Program-made: the position numbers and the translations under genes | Notes under the pieces: generated by a model | The model's input: the letters and a program-made list of their open reading frames with translations, nothing else | Told to the model about the DNA's origin: nothing | The model's database searches: none | NCBI GenBank assembly: GCA_965262915.1 | Contig: OZ253564.1 | Span: 2,144,001-2,208,000 of the forward strand | Source of the DNA: Candidatus Spongiisociaceae bacterium | Lineage (GTDB): Bacteria; Actinomycetota; Acidimicrobiia; Spongiisociales; Spongiisociaceae | Direction: 5' to 3' | DNA: 64,000 bases | Shown here: positions 1,892 to 10,590 of the stretch, in pieces | Numbering within the stretch: the first letter of the stretch is position 1 | Layout: every line of letters starts with the position of its first letter

Positions 1892-3031
1892 TTACCCCAG
1901 GCAGGCGGTGACCACTGCATCCCACGAGGGCGACCGGGGGTCGATGAGGTCGAAGTGGTCGGCCTCGGGGAGTTCTACCAGGCGGGCATCGTCACCGGAC
2001 GCGAGAGCTGCTTCGATGAACCGGCGGCTCTGGTCCGGGAGCACGTCATCGTCCCGGTGGCCATGTACCGCCACGATCGGTGCGCCGCACGGGAGCGCCC
2101 GGATCGGGTCCACCCGGTCGAGGCTCGTTTCTGGTTCGTCGCCCAGGAATCCGGCCAGAAGGTCCTCGAAGCCGGACCCGAGCCGGCGGAGGTCGAGCAT
2201 CCCACCAAGGGATACGAGACGGACCGGACGCCTCCGGGCGGCCTTGGTGGCGAAGAAACCGAGGTGACCCCCGGCCGAGTGGCCGACCACGGTCACGTCT
2301 GACGGTTCGATCGGGTAGTTGCCGGCTATCGAATCGAGGGCGTCCACGCCGGCGACGACGTCGGCGATCGTCTTACGCCAGCCGCCGACCGGGGGGATGC
2401 GCCGGTACTCGATACTCCAGGTGGCCAAACCTCGGGCGGCGAGGTCCACCGCAGCGCCGTCCATGGTGTCACGGGTGAAGTAGTCGAGCCAGCCGCCCCC
2501 ATGGATCAGCACGGCCACCGGATGAGGACCCGTCCCGTCGGGGAGCCGGAGGTCCCCAACCTGATCGGGATGCGTCCCGTAGCCGAGCGTCACCGGCGGA
2601 TGTTCGGCCCGGTAGTGAAGGTGGGCGATGGCCGACAGGTAACCTTGGACGCCGCGCCCGAAGATCTGGTAGGCGCAGGCCGGTTCGATCCGCGAGATCC
2701 GCCGCCACGCTTCCCTGCGGCGCACGTTGGAGATGTGGATCTCGACAGTCGGAAGGCCCACGGCTTCGATGGCGTCAGCTAGCGCGTAGCTGGTGTGGGT
2801 GTACGCGCCCGGGTTGAACACGATCGCGTCGGCCGTCTTCCGGGCGGCGTGGATAGCGTCGATGAGGGCGCCCTCGTGATTCGACTGGAAGGCTTCCAAC
2901 CGGTGGCCGTACTCGGCTGCCCCGGCCCGGCACAGTTCCTCCACCTCCGCGAGGGTGGTGGCCCCGTACACCTCGGGTGCTCGGGTTCCGAGCAGGTTGA
3001 GATTGGGCCCGTTGAGAAGCAGGATCCGCAT
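1892..3031 (-). CDS. aroQ: Type II 3-dehydroquinate dehydratase fused to C-terminal alpha/beta hydrolase
   Basis: N-term LNGPNLNLLGTR..YG, NPGAYTHTS, EIHISN; C-term IHGGGW, GHSAGG, HG..DD.V, DHF in one uninterrupted ORF. Confidence 0.9.
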   Translation of the reverse strand: MRILLLNGPNLNLLGTRAPEVYGATTLAEVEELCRAGAAEYGHRLEAFQSNHEGALIDAIHAARKTADAIVFNPGAYTHTSYALADAIEAVGLPTVEIHISNVRRREAWRRISRIEPACAYQIFGRGVQGYLSAIAHLHYRAEHPPVTLGYGTHPDQVGDLRLPDGTGPHPVAVLIHGGGWLDYFTRDTMDGAAVDLAARGLATWSIEYRRIPPVGGWRKTIADVVAGVDALDSIAGNYPIEPSDVTVVGHSAGGHLGFFATKAARRRPVRLVSLGGMLDLRRLGSGFEDLLAGFLGDEPETSLDRVDPIRALPCGAPIVAVHGHRDDDVLPDQSRRFIEAALASGDDARLVELPEADHFDLIDPRSPSWDAVVTACLG

Positions 3032-3043
3032 GATCGGCCAGCG

Positions 3044-3092
3044 TAGTCTGTAGTCTCTAGTCTGTAGTTTCCTGTCTGTAGCTTCCAGACTC
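3044..3092. repeat. Degenerate period-7 tandem repeat (TAGTCTG/TAGTCTC), about 7 units
   Basis: tagtctg tagtctc tagtctg tagtttc ctgtctg tagcttc cagactc. Confidence 0.8.
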
Positions 3093-3242
3093 TATTTTTA
3101 TTACTCGTTAGTAAATGTTAACCACCGACCACCGACACATTTGTCGATTTAGCCAGTTGAATATCGAGATTACTGTTGTTCTATAGCCTGTAGTATCTGT
3201 GTTCGTGCATAGTGGGACGATAGCGGCTGGGGAACCGAAAGC

Positions 3243-3431
3243 ATGACGGCGATTACGGAATCCTTGGTGGATGCCAAGGATGACAAGGTGAAGGCACAAC
3301 TGGAGACAGAGGTCGCGAAAGCGGTTGGCAACCTTCAGCGGTCGATGTACCAGACCGCGTTCTGGGTAGCCGGTACCGTTGTGGCGGCTCTCGGGATAGC
3401 CGTTTCCATCCTGTTATCGCAACTCTCGTAG
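3243..3431 (+). CDS. Small coiled-coil protein with C-terminal transmembrane helix (DUF1640-like)
   Basis: 62 aa; helical N-part, then hydrophobic FWVAGTVVAALGIAVSILL; AT-rich upstream region. Confidence 0.55.
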   Translation: MTAITESLVDAKDDKVKAQLETEVAKAVGNLQRSMYQTAFWVAGTVVAALGIAVSILLSQLS

Positions 3432-3518
3432 GTTCGCCGCTGGCCCGGCGGTCGATGACAGAAGATGCCTGGTCAGCGGACCGCGGGCCAACCGATCACA
3501 CCGTTTTCCAGCACCCTC

Positions 3519-4343
3519 CTAGTCCAGTTCGTACCACTCCACGGCTTCCGGAGTCAGGAAGTCGCGTATCCCGTTGACTATCCATCGGTGTCCGGTGTCG
3601 AGGAAGGCGAACACGCCGTCGACGCCCGCGCCCAACGGTGTCCCACGGGCGAACATGGTCAGGATCAGGAAGTCGGCGCCGCCCTCGGACCGGGCGGTTT
3701 CCAGCCGCCCGTACAAACGTCCCACGCGCCGGCCGTCGGCGTCCGGAATCACGTACTGGGTGATGATCCGCATCGCCTCGAGGTCCGGGAGGTACGCGCC
3801 CCGGCGCCCGGAGAAGATGCGTGCTACGCGGTCCAAGCCGCCAGGATCGTCCCAGAGGCCCCCTGACTGGAACTGGAACCGGTAGCTGATCTCGCACTGG
3901 AGGGGCTTGAACTCACCGAGATCGGTGTCTTGCGCGAACTCGATCAAGCTGGTGAGGGACTCGGTGAAGTCGGAGCGCACCGAGCCATAGCCCGGGTAGG
4001 GGGGAGGTGTTCCGTTGGCGGTGGCCCGGCCGGTCGCTCGCCAGTTCCGGGCGAACCAGTTGCGTTGGACCTGTATCAACCCGCTTCCGTCTTCGTTGCT
4101 GAACCATCTGCGGATGTTGGTTATGGGGCTGGCAGACGGCAGGGCCGCCAGGCTTCCGTCGGGTTCTTCGATGAACGGCTTGTGAGGAGCTTTCTCCTCG
4201 TCGGTGGGGAACTGCTCGACGTAGCACAGGTCCCGCAGGTCGTCGAGTTCGTACCGCAGCATGCGGTGGAACTCCTCGAAGCCCACACTCAGGGCTACTT
4301 CGACCAGCCCGCCGGTGGACGATGTCTTGAAGTCTTCAGGCAC
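3519..4343 (-). CDS. TIGR04255-like protein of unknown function
   Basis: LVEVALSVGF, RRWF...LIQVQ..WFARNWR, YPGY, QCEISY motifs; GTG at 4343 preceded by GGGAG. Confidence 0.7.
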   Translation of the reverse strand: MPEDFKTSSTGGLVEVALSVGFEEFHRMLRYELDDLRDLCYVEQFPTDEEKAPHKPFIEEPDGSLAALPSASPITNIRRWFSNEDGSGLIQVQRNWFARNWRATGRATANGTPPPYPGYGSVRSDFTESLTSLIEFAQDTDLGEFKPLQCEISYRFQFQSGGLWDDPGGLDRVARIFSGRRGAYLPDLEAMRIITQYVIPDADGRRVGRLYGRLETARSEGGADFLILTMFARGTPLGAGVDGVFAFLDTGHRWIVNGIRDFLTPEAVEWYELD

Positions 4344-6445: not shown

Positions 6446-6517
6446 CCGTGCCATCGTCTGTCCACGCCGATGTCATAGGATGTGGACTATCACCAGAGAC
6501 CTAGGAGGCTTTCCGGC

Positions 6518-6808
6518 ATGTTCAAGCGGGTAGTTCATCCCGGTGAGATCCTCGCGGACGAACTGGCGGAGATGGGTATGACGCCTACGGAGTTCGCTCG
6601 TCAGATCGAAGTACCGCCGAACCGCATCAGCCAGATCATTGCCGGTAGGCGTTCCGTCACGGCCGACACTGCGCTACGGTTCGGACACTGGTTCGGGGTC
6701 GAGCCGCGGTTCTGGCTCAACCTACAGGCGCGGTACGCCCTGGTGATCGCCGATCAACGCGTCGGCGGCATGGTGCGCGCGTTACCGACGGCTGCTCAGA
6801 GTGCGTGA
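6518..6808 (+). CDS. higA: HigA family XRE antitoxin (orphan)
   Basis: HPGEILADEL, RSVTADTALRF, FWLNLQ..Y; AGGAGG RBS. Confidence 0.9.
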   Translation: MFKRVVHPGEILADELAEMGMTPTEFARQIEVPPNRISQIIAGRRSVTADTALRFGHWFGVEPRFWLNLQARYALVIADQRVGGMVRALPTAAQSA

Positions 6809-7136
6809 TGTCGCGAGGAACAGGGAAGACTGGCTCGATGAGATAGTCGTCGAGCAGCGATACAGATGGACCAGGCCCACTCCGACCCTGCTCGAAGGCT
6901 TGCTCCGGCAGGATCTTCCCTGCCGGATAAGACAATCCTACGCAGGCAACCACCCCGTTCTCCATGTAGCGATCGGGACCAACGGTACCCACAACTACTG
7001 GCAATGGGCCACTCTGGATCGGGAGACTTCCGAGCCATTGTCGAAAGAGGAAGCCATAGCCGGTCTCCGGAAAATCATCGAGCTGACAATGATCACGTCC
7101 AGAAGCAGCGTCGTTCCCAAGCTGATGAGCGCATGA
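6801..7136 (+). CDS. Hypothetical protein
   Basis: 111-aa ORF overlapping the higA stop and coupled (ATGA) to the next gene; no recognised motif. Confidence 0.4.
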   Translation: MRDVARNREDWLDEIVVEQRYRWTRPTPTLLEGLLRQDLPCRIRQSYAGNHPVLHVAIGTNGTHNYWQWATLDRETSEPLSKEEAIAGLRKIIELTMITSRSSVVPKLMSA

Positions 7137-7268
7137 CGCTGGTGGATACCATCCCGATAACGTCCCCGAGGGATGTAGCCCGCCGGGCTGTCGCAACAGT
7201 TTCCGCCCCCCACAACGATCTGAAAGCTTTGGAGACCGTTATATGGCTCATCGATGCTCCTATGGTTG

Positions 7269-8499
7269 TCAAGTCGGTGATGTGGCCGGTTCGTGGGTTA
7301 GGAGCCAGGTCTGGTATTGGCTGGCGAGTTGGTGGTTGTGGTCTCGGCCGCGTTCGAGTGCGGAGATGCGGCTGGGGTGGGTTCCGAGCTGTTGGGCGGC
7401 CTGGGTGACGGTGATGTTGGCGTGTTGACGTCGGCGGCGGAGCCGGGCGCAGTTCGGGGTTGGTGGCGGGTTGGTCAGCAGTCGGTAGATCTGTGGGGCG
7501 ATGTGCCGCTTGAGGCAGCGGATGATCTCTTTTCGGTTCTTTCCTTCCCCCTGGCGCCGTGCCACGTATTGGTTGGTGGCTGCGTCGTGGCGTATCCGGG
7601 TGGTAGCGCATCGGCCAGAGCGCGTTGTTGGCTTGGCGGTTACCTCCCCGGTTGAGACGATGCCGGATGGTCTGTCCCGATGATGCCTGGACGGGGCTGG
7701 CGCCACACAGCGCCGCGAAGGACCGTTCTGATTTCATCCGCTGGGGGTTGTCGCCGGCTGCGACTAGCAGGGCGGCTGCTGTGTCAGGGCCCACACCTTT
7801 GGCGGCTAACAGAGCCGGGTTAGCCTCGGCGCAGAGGCGACGGATCTCGATCTTGAGTTCTGCGATTTCTGTGTCGAGGGCTTGGTATCGGCGGGCCAGG
7901 TAGCGTAGAGCCATCTTCGCGTACGCCGCAGTGGTCTGTGCTTGGCCGGGACGCCAGCGGGCACAGACCCGAACCCGGGCCTTGAGCTTGAGACCTCTGA
8001 GCTGGCGTTTTACCTGTTCAGGTGCGGTAACGGTCACAGAATGTATCTGGTTAGCGGCCTGGGTGCGGGCCTTGGTAGCCGAGCGGCGGGCCACCAACAA
8101 CATCCGTATGCACTCAACGGGGCCGTCACCAGATTTGGGAACTGCGGTAGCTTGCCCCGAGGCCGCTGCCCGAGCTGCCGCCTCGGCGTCGACACTGTCG
8201 GTCTTGCCGCCCCGCTGGCGGCGTAGCTGCCGGTTCGGCCGGTTCACTTCTACCACCTCGATGCCCGCCGCCATCAGATAGCGGGCTAGGCCGGCGCCGT
8301 AGCTGCCGGTGCCCTCCACTCCTACCCGGAGCAGGTGCCCGTGGGTTCCGAACCACCTGGTCATCTGCTCATATCCGACCGGATCAGCCCCGAACGGAGC
8401 GGTTCCCAGCACTCGACCGGCGTTGTCGACCACCGCCGCAACATGGGTATCACGATGGGTATCAACCCCACCGAACACAACCCGACCATCTTCTTCCAT
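7269..8499 (-). pseudogene. IS110 recombinase with frameshift near 7610 and C-terminal HTH extension
   Basis: GVDTH, VEGTGSYG, KTDSVDA (DEDD), ASSG, RLNRGGNRQAN; C-terminus ATTRIRHD...RCLKRHIA continues in the 7269-7706 frame. Confidence 0.88.
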
Positions 8500-8543
8500 G
8501 ACGCCTTCCTCCTCTGCGGGATAGAATCACTTCCTAATCCTCG

Positions 8544-8717
8544 GACCCGGAAGGCGGTTGGACAGGCCACTCACGGTGGAGAACTCGAAGGCTCCTATTA
8601 GGTCACATCCGCCCCGGGTCAGGGGGTTACACCCCCAAGCTGGGAACAGGCCGACAGATCGATGAAAAGGCACAAGGCCAGATTTCAGTTGGGTCAGACC
8701 CGTCCCAGCCCAGGAAC
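8544..8717 (-). ncRNA. Putative IS110 bridge RNA (ends approximate)
   Basis: Two stem-loops with internal loops; guides ACTGAAATC (8689-8681) and TCATCGAT (8665-8658) match the target; ATAGGAGC (8598-8591) and TGAGTGG (8573-8567) match the donor. Confidence 0.8.
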
Positions 8718-8737
8718 CTTCTAAGTATGAGTGGATT

Positions 8738-10039
8738 TCAGTGGGGAGTGACGGTGGCCAATAGGTCCCAGTTGGGTTTCCCCGCGTAGAGGAGTGCCCG
8801 TATTCGGTAGTTCGCGAAGTTGCGGAACCCGAACGCGATGCGTTTGATCCTCTTGATGAGGTTGTTGAGGGCTTCGGTGGGTCCGTTGGTTACCTTCGAG
8901 ATGTGCCAGTTGGTGATCTGGGGGGTCCAGCGGGCGATGGTACGTCCGAGCTTGTTGATCTCGGGTGGGCAGGATTCGTCCTGGAGGTCGTCTGCGAGCT
9001 GGAGGGTGTATTGGAGAGCGAGGGCGGGACTGTCGACCCCGTAGATGCCTCTCACGGTTTCCTTCGCGTGCCAGGCTGTGCGCACTTCGCCGTGGGGGTC
9101 ACCAGCGTCGAGGAGTCCGCGCAGGCGGGTTTGGCCGCGGTCGCTGATCTTGTCGTGGGCGGCGGTGAGGAGCCGCCGTATCCCATAGAGTGGGTCTCCT
9201 TTCCGGCCTCTGTGTCCGAGGGTTTCGTTTTGGACTCTTCTGCGTACTTCGTCGAGACGCTGGTTGGCGAGGCGGCTGACGTGGAACGGGTCTGCTACTT
9301 GGAGGGCGTGGGGCAGCACCCTGTCATACGCCTTCCGATACGAACCGGACATGACCCGACACCGCCCAGCGGATACCCCCAAGCCAATCCGCCGGTTGTG
9401 ACCGGAACCAGGCTGCGGCGCTTTCTGCCGTTCTACCAGGGACTATGTCGATCAGCTGGTGGCCCCCAACGTCGACGACAGAGGTGCACCAGACTTTGGT
9501 GCGCCACCGGCCTTTCCGCCAGAACAACGCTTCTTGTCGATGCCCACAGCTCCGACCTCGCCTATCCGATCGGTGTCGGCTTCCAACAGGGCTTCGCCCC
9601 AGCGGACGACCTCGTTGTTCACCGTATGCCAATCACAACCCAACTCCGCGGCGACCTCGTCGATCGGACGGCCCCGCCCACCCACCTGGACGGTCACCCA
9701 CCGCGCCGCTCGGGATGTCAACAACGCCCGTTCGGGACCAATCGTGGGGTCTTGCTCGATGAACGACCTGATCCCACAGTCCGGATTCGGACACGTCCAG
9801 CGCCGTTTCCTCCACCGCAGCCGCACAGGCCGACCGAACGCCGGTAAATCCACCAACACCACACTCCGATAGCCCTTCGACCACACCGACCCGCCACATG
9901 CCACACACAACGGGCGGGCCTTGCGGGACCCGATCACCACCTCAAGAGGTGCACCCTCGCCCGGGTCGTTGATCCCCACCAGATCAACCTCGCCTAGGCC
10001 TACCAACTTCTCGCACATGCGCGTAGGATCAGCTTCCAC
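8738..10039 (-). pseudogene. ISL3 transposase with frameshifts near 9535 and 9360
   Basis: Zn finger C..CG / RRWTCPNPDC, GID, DMSGSY, VADPFHV, TNGPTEALNN.IKRIKR.AFGFRNF.NYRIR spread over three frames. Confidence 0.9.
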
Positions 10040-10590
10040 AGGGGTCCTCCTGCCTCGGATGTCATTACCAACACCCGATTATGGAGGACCCCCCATCACT
10101 TCTGGTGGATTACCACTCCCCCTGGCAGATCCCCTACTCCCCACTCATTTCCGAAGAGCCCGTTATATTCGAGTTGTGCCTGAACGTCAAGCAGTGGGCC
10201 GAAGCAGATGGCAACGTTTTCGTTGAAGAGGAAGAGAGCCGCTTTGTGATCACCGTTCAGGATCATGGAGTGGGTATTCCCGCGACTATGAGAAGGGCTT
10301 TCTCGGGGTTGAGCAACGAGGAAGCCGTCGCTCGCGCCTTGGCAGCAGGCGGTACCTCGTCGGGGCAACAGTGGCGCGGATTCGGGTTGGCGGACGCGAC
10401 AGATATGTCGAACAGGGAAGGTTTCAGCGTCTACCTGGAAACCTAAGATGTGGCGATCTGGTCCGTCGATGGCTCCCTGACCTTCAGCTACAAGAGCGAG
10501 GGTGCTATCGCGGGAACACGGATCCAGATCATCTATTCCGTCCTTTAGTAGGCCTTCGCCGGGTCGTGAATACCGCCTATCTCTTCTCGA

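Follow-up and report, generated by a model that had tools for sequence, protein, structure and literature searches.

A very probable bridge-RNA-guided insertion sequence of the IS110 group aimed at ISL3 ends in a Candidatus Spongiisociaceae genome

Excerpts of the published work on IS621 from Escherichia coli describe a bridge recombinase that acts together with a bridge RNA (Durrant et al. 2024, PMC11208160; Hiraizumi et al. 2024, PMC11208158). In the excerpted reports, donor and target of IS621 carry an invariant CT core at positions 8-9 (PMC13626964), a mismatch at position 7 is tolerated (PMC11208160) and the top strands are cut after position 9 (PMC11208158). The IS110-group elements ISEc21, ISPpu9 and ISPpu10 also come with a seekRNA or bridge RNA, and IS4321/IS5075 insert into the terminal repeats of Tn21-family transposons, the former as described in excerpts of PMC11187229 and in abstracts on ISPpu9 and ISPpu10, the latter as cited in PMC11187229. 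Here, we analyse an insertion sequence (IS) of the IS110 group in a 64-kb stretch of contig OZ253564.1 (the window) from the genome of a Candidatus Spongiisociaceae bacterium, a single contig of 5.06 Mb (G000:C1). The window element is very probably a genuine bridge-RNA-guided IS, and its guide RNA is aimed at the end of another IS belonging to the ISL3 family.

The evidence comes mainly from sibling copies. In this genome the element has 43 matches, of which 31 align over 1150 nt or more. According to their identity to the window copy they fall into subfamily A (93-100%, eight copies, c00-c07), subfamily B (about 81%, nine copies) and subfamilies C to H (71-83%). A 9-nt block in the non-coding left end equals the left flank of the copy, and a 5-nt block is the reverse complement of the 5 nt after the right tip GGAGCATC. 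The first block, the left target guide, reads ACTGAAATC in subfamilies A and B, GGTGAAATC in C, ACTGAAATT in D, AAAGAACAC in E, CCTCGTAAC in F, CCGGGAAAC in G and CGCGAAAAC in H, and the right flanks are, in the same order, GATGA, CTTGG, CCCAC, AACGC, ATGAC, CGGGG and GTGGG. Own guides agree with own flanks at 12-14 of 14 positions in 23 of the 24 copies with both ends; non-cognate guide-flank pairs across classes agree at 6.3 positions on average and at 10 of 14 at most. Class by class, the cognate figure is 13-14 of 14. The guide matches lie far beyond chance because guides, including the left target guide with its left flank, covary with flanks in seven guide classes. The covariation of guide and target across homologous copies that a first-pass annotation of the window had put forward as a check is thus borne out.

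As that annotation had also proposed, the window copy targets an ISL3 element at its right terminal inverted repeat, and the target overlaps the stop codon of the ISL3 transposase gene (Table 1). The host ISL3 is complete with both repeats and a flanking 8-bp duplication, its right repeat being split by the IS110. Its transposase is distributed over two open reading frames (ORFs; 10039-9452 and 9382-8738, 195 and 214 aa), so that this copy is probably dead apart from the IS110 insertion. All six strings quoted in the annotation were recovered when checked against the minus-strand letters of the window, namely ACTGAAATC at 8689-8681, TCATCGAT at 8665-8658, GGGGGTGTAACCCCC at 8636-8622, ATAGGAGC at 8598-8591 and again at 7263-7256, and TGAGTGG at 8573-8567. 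The junctions read ...CACTGAAATC/CACTCATA... on the left and ...ATAGGAGC ATC/GATGAGCC on the right; with the slash at the element boundary, the minus strand reads ...GTCACTCCCCACTGAAATC/CACTCATACTTAG... from 8742 to 8720 and ...CAACCATAGGAGCATC/GATGAGCCATATAACG... from 7266 to 7237. The element proper, ACTCATA...GGAGCAT, comprises 1480 nt together with one C that is shared with the target and can be assigned to 8733 or 7253. Its non-coding left end extends over 233 nt from the left tip (8732) to the ATG (8499) of the recombinase gene, and only 15 nt separate the recombinase stop codon (7269) from the right tip.

Table 1. Features of the IS110-group element and of its ISL3 host, in window coordinates
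Feature	Position	Strand	Basis or remark
IS110-group insertion sequence, subfamily A copy c00	7253..8733	-	ends from 24 full-length copies compared with unoccupied sites
Bridge RNA structured core: outer closing stem and two arms	8532..8718	-	alignment A1, RNAalifold, pair counts
Arm 1, target-binding loop arm	8637..8711	-	stem 8711-8693 / 8655-8637; inner hairpin 8679-8669
Left target guide ACUGAAAUC	8681..8689	-	9/9 identical to ISL3 repeat 8742-8734
Right target guide UCAUC + GAU	8658..8665	-	UCAUC 8665-8661, GAU 8660-8658
Linker hairpin GGGGG/CCCCC between arms	8622..8636	-	string check, alignment
Arm 2, donor-binding loop arm	8547..8617	-	RNAalifold consensus, pair counts
Left donor guide AUAGGAGC then C-U-U	8588..8598	-	guide identical to right end 7263-7256
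Right donor guide UGAGUGG	8567..8573	-	UGAGU pairs with left-end ACTCA
DEDD/Ser recombinase gene, frameshifted	7269..8499	-	Pfam, indel map, intact 409-aa paralogue
TTGACA -35 box in right end	7267..7272	-	
Target left half ACTGAAATC in ISL3 right inverted repeat	8734..8742	-	includes ISL3 transposase stop TGA 8740-8738
Target right half and outer tip of ISL3 right inverted repeat GATGAGCC	7245..7252	-	
ISL3 8-bp target duplication ATATAACG	7244-7237	-	
Host ISL3 element	8734..10160	-	left repeat GGCTCTTCGGAAATGAGTGGGGAGT from 10160

RNAalifold applied to a 14-sequence alignment yielded a two-arm fold, in which 91.8% of the alignment cells are paired as compared with 85.7% in shuffles, a value reached by none of 500 shuffled alignments. 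Sliding the pairing partners lowered the paired cells to 52.8% or less, and 16 of the 41 pairs show changes on both sides. A single-sequence long-range fold that buries arm 2 was set aside for this alignment-based structure. The alignment fold and the pair counts thus provide the two stem-closed arms drawn in the first-pass annotation, with the target loop on the 5' and the donor loop on the 3' side, and guides, alignment and flank matches uphold the IS621-like guide order and strand logic claimed there. The conserved scaffold runs from GGGTCTGACyCa through nine variable nucleotides, UGGC...GCCUUu and five further variable nucleotides to GAUCUGUCG, and continues with GACCUnAUAGGAGCyUU ... CCGUGAGUG[G/U]. 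The linker hairpin is dispensable, since subfamilies F and H lack it. In subfamilies C, D and E (c19, c20, c22-24), approximately 40-50 extra nucleotides lie between the left tip and arm 1; they are GC-rich and may form an additional hairpin.

In arm 1, UCAUC is the reverse complement of GATGA at 7252-7248, and the following GAU, invariant in 14 of 14 aligned RNAs, is the reverse complement of the donor tip ATC. Both guides of arm 2 are complementary to the element's own ends: AUAGGAGC has the sequence of the right end, and UGAGUG is the left end in reverse complement. The C-U-U that follows the left donor guide faces donor A-T-C with a mismatch, a U:A pair and a U-G wobble; across the RNAs the segment reads AUAGGAGC-y-U-U, which places the mismatch at position 7 in IS621 numbering. 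An A-to-G change in the left donor guide of subfamilies C and D is matched by an A-to-G change in their right ends. The sixth base of UGAGUGG, a G, is the partner of the shared C; the final G forms a handshake-like pair with the target base lying 5' of this C. This seventh base, either G or U, follows the target base in five of the seven classes. A target C at this place, 5' of the shared C, goes with G (subfamilies A and G and the related loci L027/L029 of other genomes) and a target A with U (subfamilies E, F and H and loci L022, L023 and L030/34/44).

The crossover differs from the one originally deduced. The first-pass annotation had obtained a contiguous 14/14 target, ACTGAA-ATC-GATGA, by removing the IS110 from the window, and had proposed a 3-nt ATC core. 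This target is a reconstruction, and the natural empty site contains one more C. Unoccupied ISL3 repeats read ACTGAAATCCGATGA at 16 of 17 sites in this genome and at five of five sites in four other genomes, the native repeat contains AAATCCGATGA, and the natural unoccupied site is ACTGAAATC-C-GATGA. Contigs of the empty repeat from RNA libraries align up to window position 8733. As the unoccupied repeats carry the extra C, donor (..GGAGCAT-C-ACTCATA..) and target share only one C. The other subfamilies conform to this. Empty sites of subfamily G in the own genome read CCGGGAAAC-C-CGGGG in nine of nine cases, those of subfamily D read ACTGAAATT-C-CCCAC in eight of eight cases in two of 101 related genomes, and those of subfamilies C, F and H consist of 8 nt, C and 5 nt; the own genome holds no empty site of subfamily D or E. 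Irrespective of the target, every subfamily has ATC as its conserved right tip, and a 3-nt ATC core is not supported. The candidate cores ATC, CA and TC were tried, and each fails to reproduce the unoccupied sites.

The original model with a 3-nt (or TC) core, a left end CACTCA and the circle junction GGAGC-ATC-CACTCA has some merits. It offers perfect contiguous pairing in the IS621 register, with a 9-nt left guide reaching to the cut and an 8-nt right match, it lets UGAGUGG pair with seven contiguous bases (CCACTCA), and one empty site of the required kind exists (306086, minus strand). Even so, we regard it as very unlikely. Apart from the CC in nearly all unoccupied repeats and the extra C in the empty sites of subfamilies G and D, the left repeat of ISL3 has a matching GG. 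Occupied ISL3 copies carry several repeat-proximal variants which are also seen in unoccupied CC copies, so that under this model the C must have been lost repeatedly prior to insertion. Moreover, subfamily D would need unequal cores at the cut (TT versus TC), and it is the one-C junction that gives an optimal promoter spacer of 17 nt.

Numbered as in IS621, with 1-7 as left, 8-9 as core and 10-14 as right positions (PMC11208158), the donor reads AGGAGCA-TC-ACTCA. Its T8-C9 pairs with the RNA bases GA after the right target guide and its A7 with the next U; GAU pairs with the donor tip in the manner of the IS621 core-binding and handshake positions and is not a target core. Donor and target lack an identical core dinucleotide, since the donor has T at position 8 and the targets have C, A or T. 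From the G/U pattern of the seventh right-donor-guide base, position 8 is not a shared core in these elements but resembles one more handshake position. Across all 24 full-length copies, the base at position 8 is uniformly that of the target at the left junction and the donor T at the right junction. We offer, as a tentative reading that could well prove wrong, that the clade works with a single invariant crossover base and that position 8, part of the fixed core in IS621, has been turned into a handshake position. On the target, the left target guide together with the right donor guide might then read position 8; on the donor, this might fall to the left donor guide and the base adjoining the right target guide. 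The uniform outcome at position 8 would fit a fixation of top-strand information as in copy-out or top-strand-insertion models, proposed in excerpts of two recent preprints. If two strands were exchanged with a 2-nt stagger, position 8 would be left as a heteroduplex and both outcomes would be expected, but a uniform one is seen; the uniformity would likewise be accounted for by a 1-nt stagger or by biased repair. If the handshake interpretation is true, the copies lend natural-history support to the copy-out and top-strand-insertion models.

A census of the right repeats of this ISL3 type in the own genome (n=46) relates the guides to occupancy. A or B copies occupy 16 of the 46 repeats, which answers the question raised in the first-pass annotation whether other copies sit in ISL3 inverted repeats. 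Another 16 are unoccupied and read ACTGAAATCCGA[T/A]GA, one has one C fewer (ACTGAAATCGATGA), and 13 have mismatches to the left target, eight of these reading ..AAACGCGATGA. Occupancy thus amounts to 16 of 32 matching repeats versus none of 13 variants (Fisher p = 0.0014, a value that is only indicative because the ISL3 copies are kin). Because it interrupts the ISL3 repeat 9 bp from the tip, the insertion probably inactivates that end. Two single loci deserve mention. The ACTGAAATCGATGA repeat at G000:C1:~306086 (minus strand) is the sole ISL3 right repeat with one C fewer and could be either an excision footprint in the canonical guide register or a plain 1-nt deletion. Copy c14 (G000:C1:4175386-4178303), an IS110 in an ISL3 repeat, is itself split by an inverted ISL3 about 30 nt from its right end, with an 8-bp duplication ACCAAACC after which the rest of the right end follows. 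The conflict between IS110 and ISL3 runs both ways.

The junctions of the occupied repeats are identical at the crossover in 16 of 16 cases, and kin copies are not independent. This would also be expected if the ISL3::IS110 composites derived from one insertion that was spread by ISL3 transposition or gene conversion, which would deprive the 16 occupied repeats of their independence. Such an origin is highly improbable. Subfamilies A and B, about 81% identical, both occupy the site, each on several ISL3 variants, and the same pairing occurs in another genome (L027, L029). The outer 9 bp of the repeat are split off by 1.5 kb, which should block ISL3 transposition, and the other five guide classes give independent support to guided insertion.

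Least of all can we credit the view that the left end is a mere 5' leader or promoter of the recombinase mRNA, its likeness to the flanks being a by-product of target choice by the protein: the lack of a matching Rfam family, contigs without RNA ends and an extra C-terminal helix-turn-helix (HTH) that could bind DNA are in its favour, but both guide blocks track the flanks in seven classes against a constant background of scaffold and donor ends, the 3' block is in every case a reverse complement, as needed for RNA-DNA pairing, the stems stay paired via compensatory changes, and experiments described in excerpts of PMC11208160 and PMC11187229 showed that the homologous systems IS621 and ISEc21 depend on the RNA.

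Several observations weigh against the interpretation of the window element as a bridge-RNA-guided IS. Copy c02 carries A-type guides, and its site matches them at only 6 of 14 positions. The left target guide is one base off the crossover in subfamilies A, D and G, whose sites have the register 9 nt, C, 5 nt; in subfamilies C, E, F and H the register is 8 nt, C, 5 nt, and the 9-nt left guide includes the shared C. The RNA base after the left guide is U, which could form a wobble opposite the shared C, and the register shift could reflect a slipped guide or a bulged DNA base. In subfamilies C and D, the seventh right-donor-guide base U faces a target T and is unpaired. The donor guides are near-invariant, and donor covariation within the subfamilies rests on one position. 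The single-sequence fold of 8742-8500 (minimum free energy -97.8 kcal/mol, z = -2.34, equalled by 3 of 200 shuffles) only mildly beats chance and gives arm 1 but not arm 2. An Rfam search of window positions 6500-10500 with E values up to 1 matched no family. Contigs from RNA libraries carry neither strand nor RNA ends and may derive from DNA. Finally, the window copy is not autonomous because of a +1 frameshift near 7609.

Copy c02 (G000:C1:3663635-3665110; L003, L067) belongs to subfamily A and lies at a non-ISL3 site, ..AAAGAACCC/C.../ACCGC.., which resembles the guide set of subfamily E (8/9 and 4/5 positions, in a +1 register). Guiding in trans by an E-type RNA, an off-target event matched to the donor only (a 'half-match') and gene conversion are possible explanations. 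A compound nest at G000:C1:4464044-4466850 (L008, L019) contains the A-type copy c06, broken near position 1350, then a 224-nt piece of an A-type right end and the truncated copy c09 (82% identity to the window copy), the right flank of which matches that of the subfamily D copy c20.

The recombinase gene begins with the ORF 8499-7093, which matches the Pfam families DEDD_Tnp_IS110 (PF01548, 1.3e-24) and Transposase_20 (PF02371, 1.6e-15), and a second-frame ORF (7706-7269) holds the C-terminal HTH. In the window copy and in c01, c03 and c07, the frame downstream of the Ser motif is shifted by one extra G near 7609. An intact paralogue of 409 aa matches the IS621 transposase (8wt6, E = 2.8e-11), its motifs ..GVEGTGSY.., ..KTDSVDA.. 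and ..SSGQT.. aligning with IEATGTY, KTDTVDA and ESGSS of IS621. The E, D..D and SG motifs of the DEDD domain and of the Tnp domain with the Ser are thus in register. A 418-codon open frame is kept in c02, c04, c05 and all B copies; in view of such intact paralogues, among them the 409-aa ORF at L006:1744-2973, the frame repair of the recombinase called for in the first-pass annotation is unnecessary. The RNA of the window copy carries the same guides as that of the intact copies, and this non-autonomous copy was probably moved, or its RNA is probably used, in trans. The four A copies with the +1 G share an adjacent substitution as well and reside at different ISL3 sites, which suggests that a non-autonomous lineage kept spreading.

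No minus-strand promoter was predicted in the integrated context. When a circle junction with one C is modelled, the TTGACA of the right end is separated by a 17-nt spacer from CATACT (8729-8724) in the left end. The sequence of this junctional -35/-10 pair (TTGACA-17-CATAnT) is present in 24 of 24 copies, 20 of which score at least 10/12 and the other four 8-9/12. Judged from these sequences, an RNA may be made, probably from a promoter assembled at the circle junction. Logan contigs from four runs, our RNA-library data, include contigs of 163-192 nt on 8554-8741 in runs X17 and X18 and a contig of 262 nt on 8588-8791 in X20; X18 is labelled as RNA and the RNA label of X17 is a guess. These contigs over the bridge RNA region are a weak hint of expression, and a joint between right and left end was absent among the contigs listed for the four runs.

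Related elements occur in Acidimicrobiia and in a few other metagenome-assembled genomes. A sequence profile of the RNA (nhmmer on alignment A1) matches 26 of 30 related loci. L027 and L029 combine the same guides with the same ISL3 repeat. L036 and L040, with approximately 56-57% protein identity, have other guides that match their flanks at 14 of 14 positions, and the guides of L034 and L044 match at 13 of 14. The more distant relatives L036, L040, L042 and L046 have switched both the right donor guide, to CACUGU, and the left tip, to AGTGAT... Among genomes of the same family, BLAST detected RNA-like sequences in 10 of 28; the 72 genomes searched from other families of the order gave none. 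The IS110 at L032 (about 2410-2620) has the left target guide TTGACAAAC and sits after ..GATTTGACAAC, which is the -35-box region in the right end of another IS110 of the clade. It appears to be aimed at its own kin.

The targets of the other subfamilies in the own genome are also mostly tied to IS. Those of C, F and H are three points on a second ISL3-family element with a 398-aa transposase, C upstream of the transposase start, F over the stop codon and H at the outer boundary. This second ISL3 (L073, G000:C1:686500-691500, about 2770-4110) is flanked by inverted GCGCG[A/G]AAACGTG. D-type sites precede an IS21-like transposase gene (Pfam rve and Mu-transpos_C_2) by approximately 90 nt. Subfamily G targets a short repeat present in nine copies, and no transposase gene adjoins it at the one locus examined.

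By analogy with IS621, loop 1 would read the target: its 5' side ACUGAAAUC, in top-strand sense left of the crossover, would pair with the bottom strand, and its 3' side UCAUC would pair to the right of the crossover with the top strand. Loop 2 would read the joined ends of the element likewise (AUAGGAGC.. and UGAGUG.), and the DEDD/Ser recombinase would exchange strands at the one shared C. The resulting insertion, 9 bp from the tip of the ISL3 right repeat and just past the transposase stop, would split the repeat and disable the ISL3 copy, and would offer the IS110 a harmless landing site in many copies. A frameshifted copy like that in the window would move only with recombinase from sibling copies. 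After the exchange, guides pairing with non-cognate DNA may favour insertion and hold integrated copies in place; directionality by non-cognate guide pairing is described for IS621 in excerpts of PMC13626964. Since all subfamilies share one donor code, the guide RNA of one subfamily may carry the circle of a sibling to its own target, and c02 is a possible example of such cross-guiding.

Another IS110 bridge RNA is in itself ordinary and opens no new category. The genome is, nevertheless, a natural reprogramming series: at least seven target-guide sets share a near-constant scaffold and donor code, their occupied sites coexist with empty ones, and almost every set is directed at the ends of other IS, namely two ISL3 types and an IS21-like element. 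From this natural data set one can read off the guide positions that are free to vary. The series further suggests a core constraint reducible to one base and a left-guide register that can slip by one. It also presents one family of mobile elements that systematically colonises, and probably disables, another, half of the matching ISL3 copies being occupied. The material should be useful for the engineering of bridge recombinases and for the study of transposon conflict. The first-pass annotation had suggested a hyperparasite of ISL3 ends, a description that is overstated in view of the precedent of IS4321/IS5075. Among the titles and abstract openings covered by our literature search, none describes an IS110-group element aimed at ISL3 repeats; the supplementary target tables of Durrant et al. 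might already hold the clade or single-base cores.

Compared with the known systems, the element is closest in design to IS621. Both have a non-coding RNA upstream of a DEDD/Ser recombinase, with the target loop preceding the donor loop. The left guide of either loop is in top-strand sense and the right guide is a reverse complement, at lengths of 9 nt and about 5 nt, respectively. As far as the excerpted IS621 work describes them, handshake guides resemble the bases just 3' of the right guides, which pair with the other DNA. The putative -35 box in the right end and -10 box in the left end would add to the likeness. The proteins, in contrast, are only remotely similar (E = 2.8e-11), and the 409-aa recombinase found here has an added C-terminal HTH. 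Only one C is common to donor and target here, and sibling elements use two registers of the left guide. The missing core dinucleotide lowers the identity with the IS621 scheme in one detail and leaves the family assignment untouched. IS621 targets repetitive extragenic palindromic (REP) sequences; the target here is the end of an IS and thus another target class.

With ISEc21, ISPpu9 and ISPpu10, as far as their excerpted description goes, the element shares the IS110 organisation, multi-copy repeats as targets and probably an RNA needed in cis or in trans, but those targets are extragenic repeats or conserved intergenic sequences and not the ends of other IS. The habit of an RNA-guided DEDD element landing in the terminal inverted repeat of another transposon links it to IS4321/IS5075. 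The latter belong to the IS1111 group, with a long non-coding region downstream of the transposase gene and subterminal inverted repeats. A downstream region of the IS1111 type is absent here, where 15 nt from stop codon to right end compare with 233 non-coding nucleotides upstream, and the hosts are ISL3 and IS21-like elements in Acidimicrobiia instead of Tn3-family transposons.

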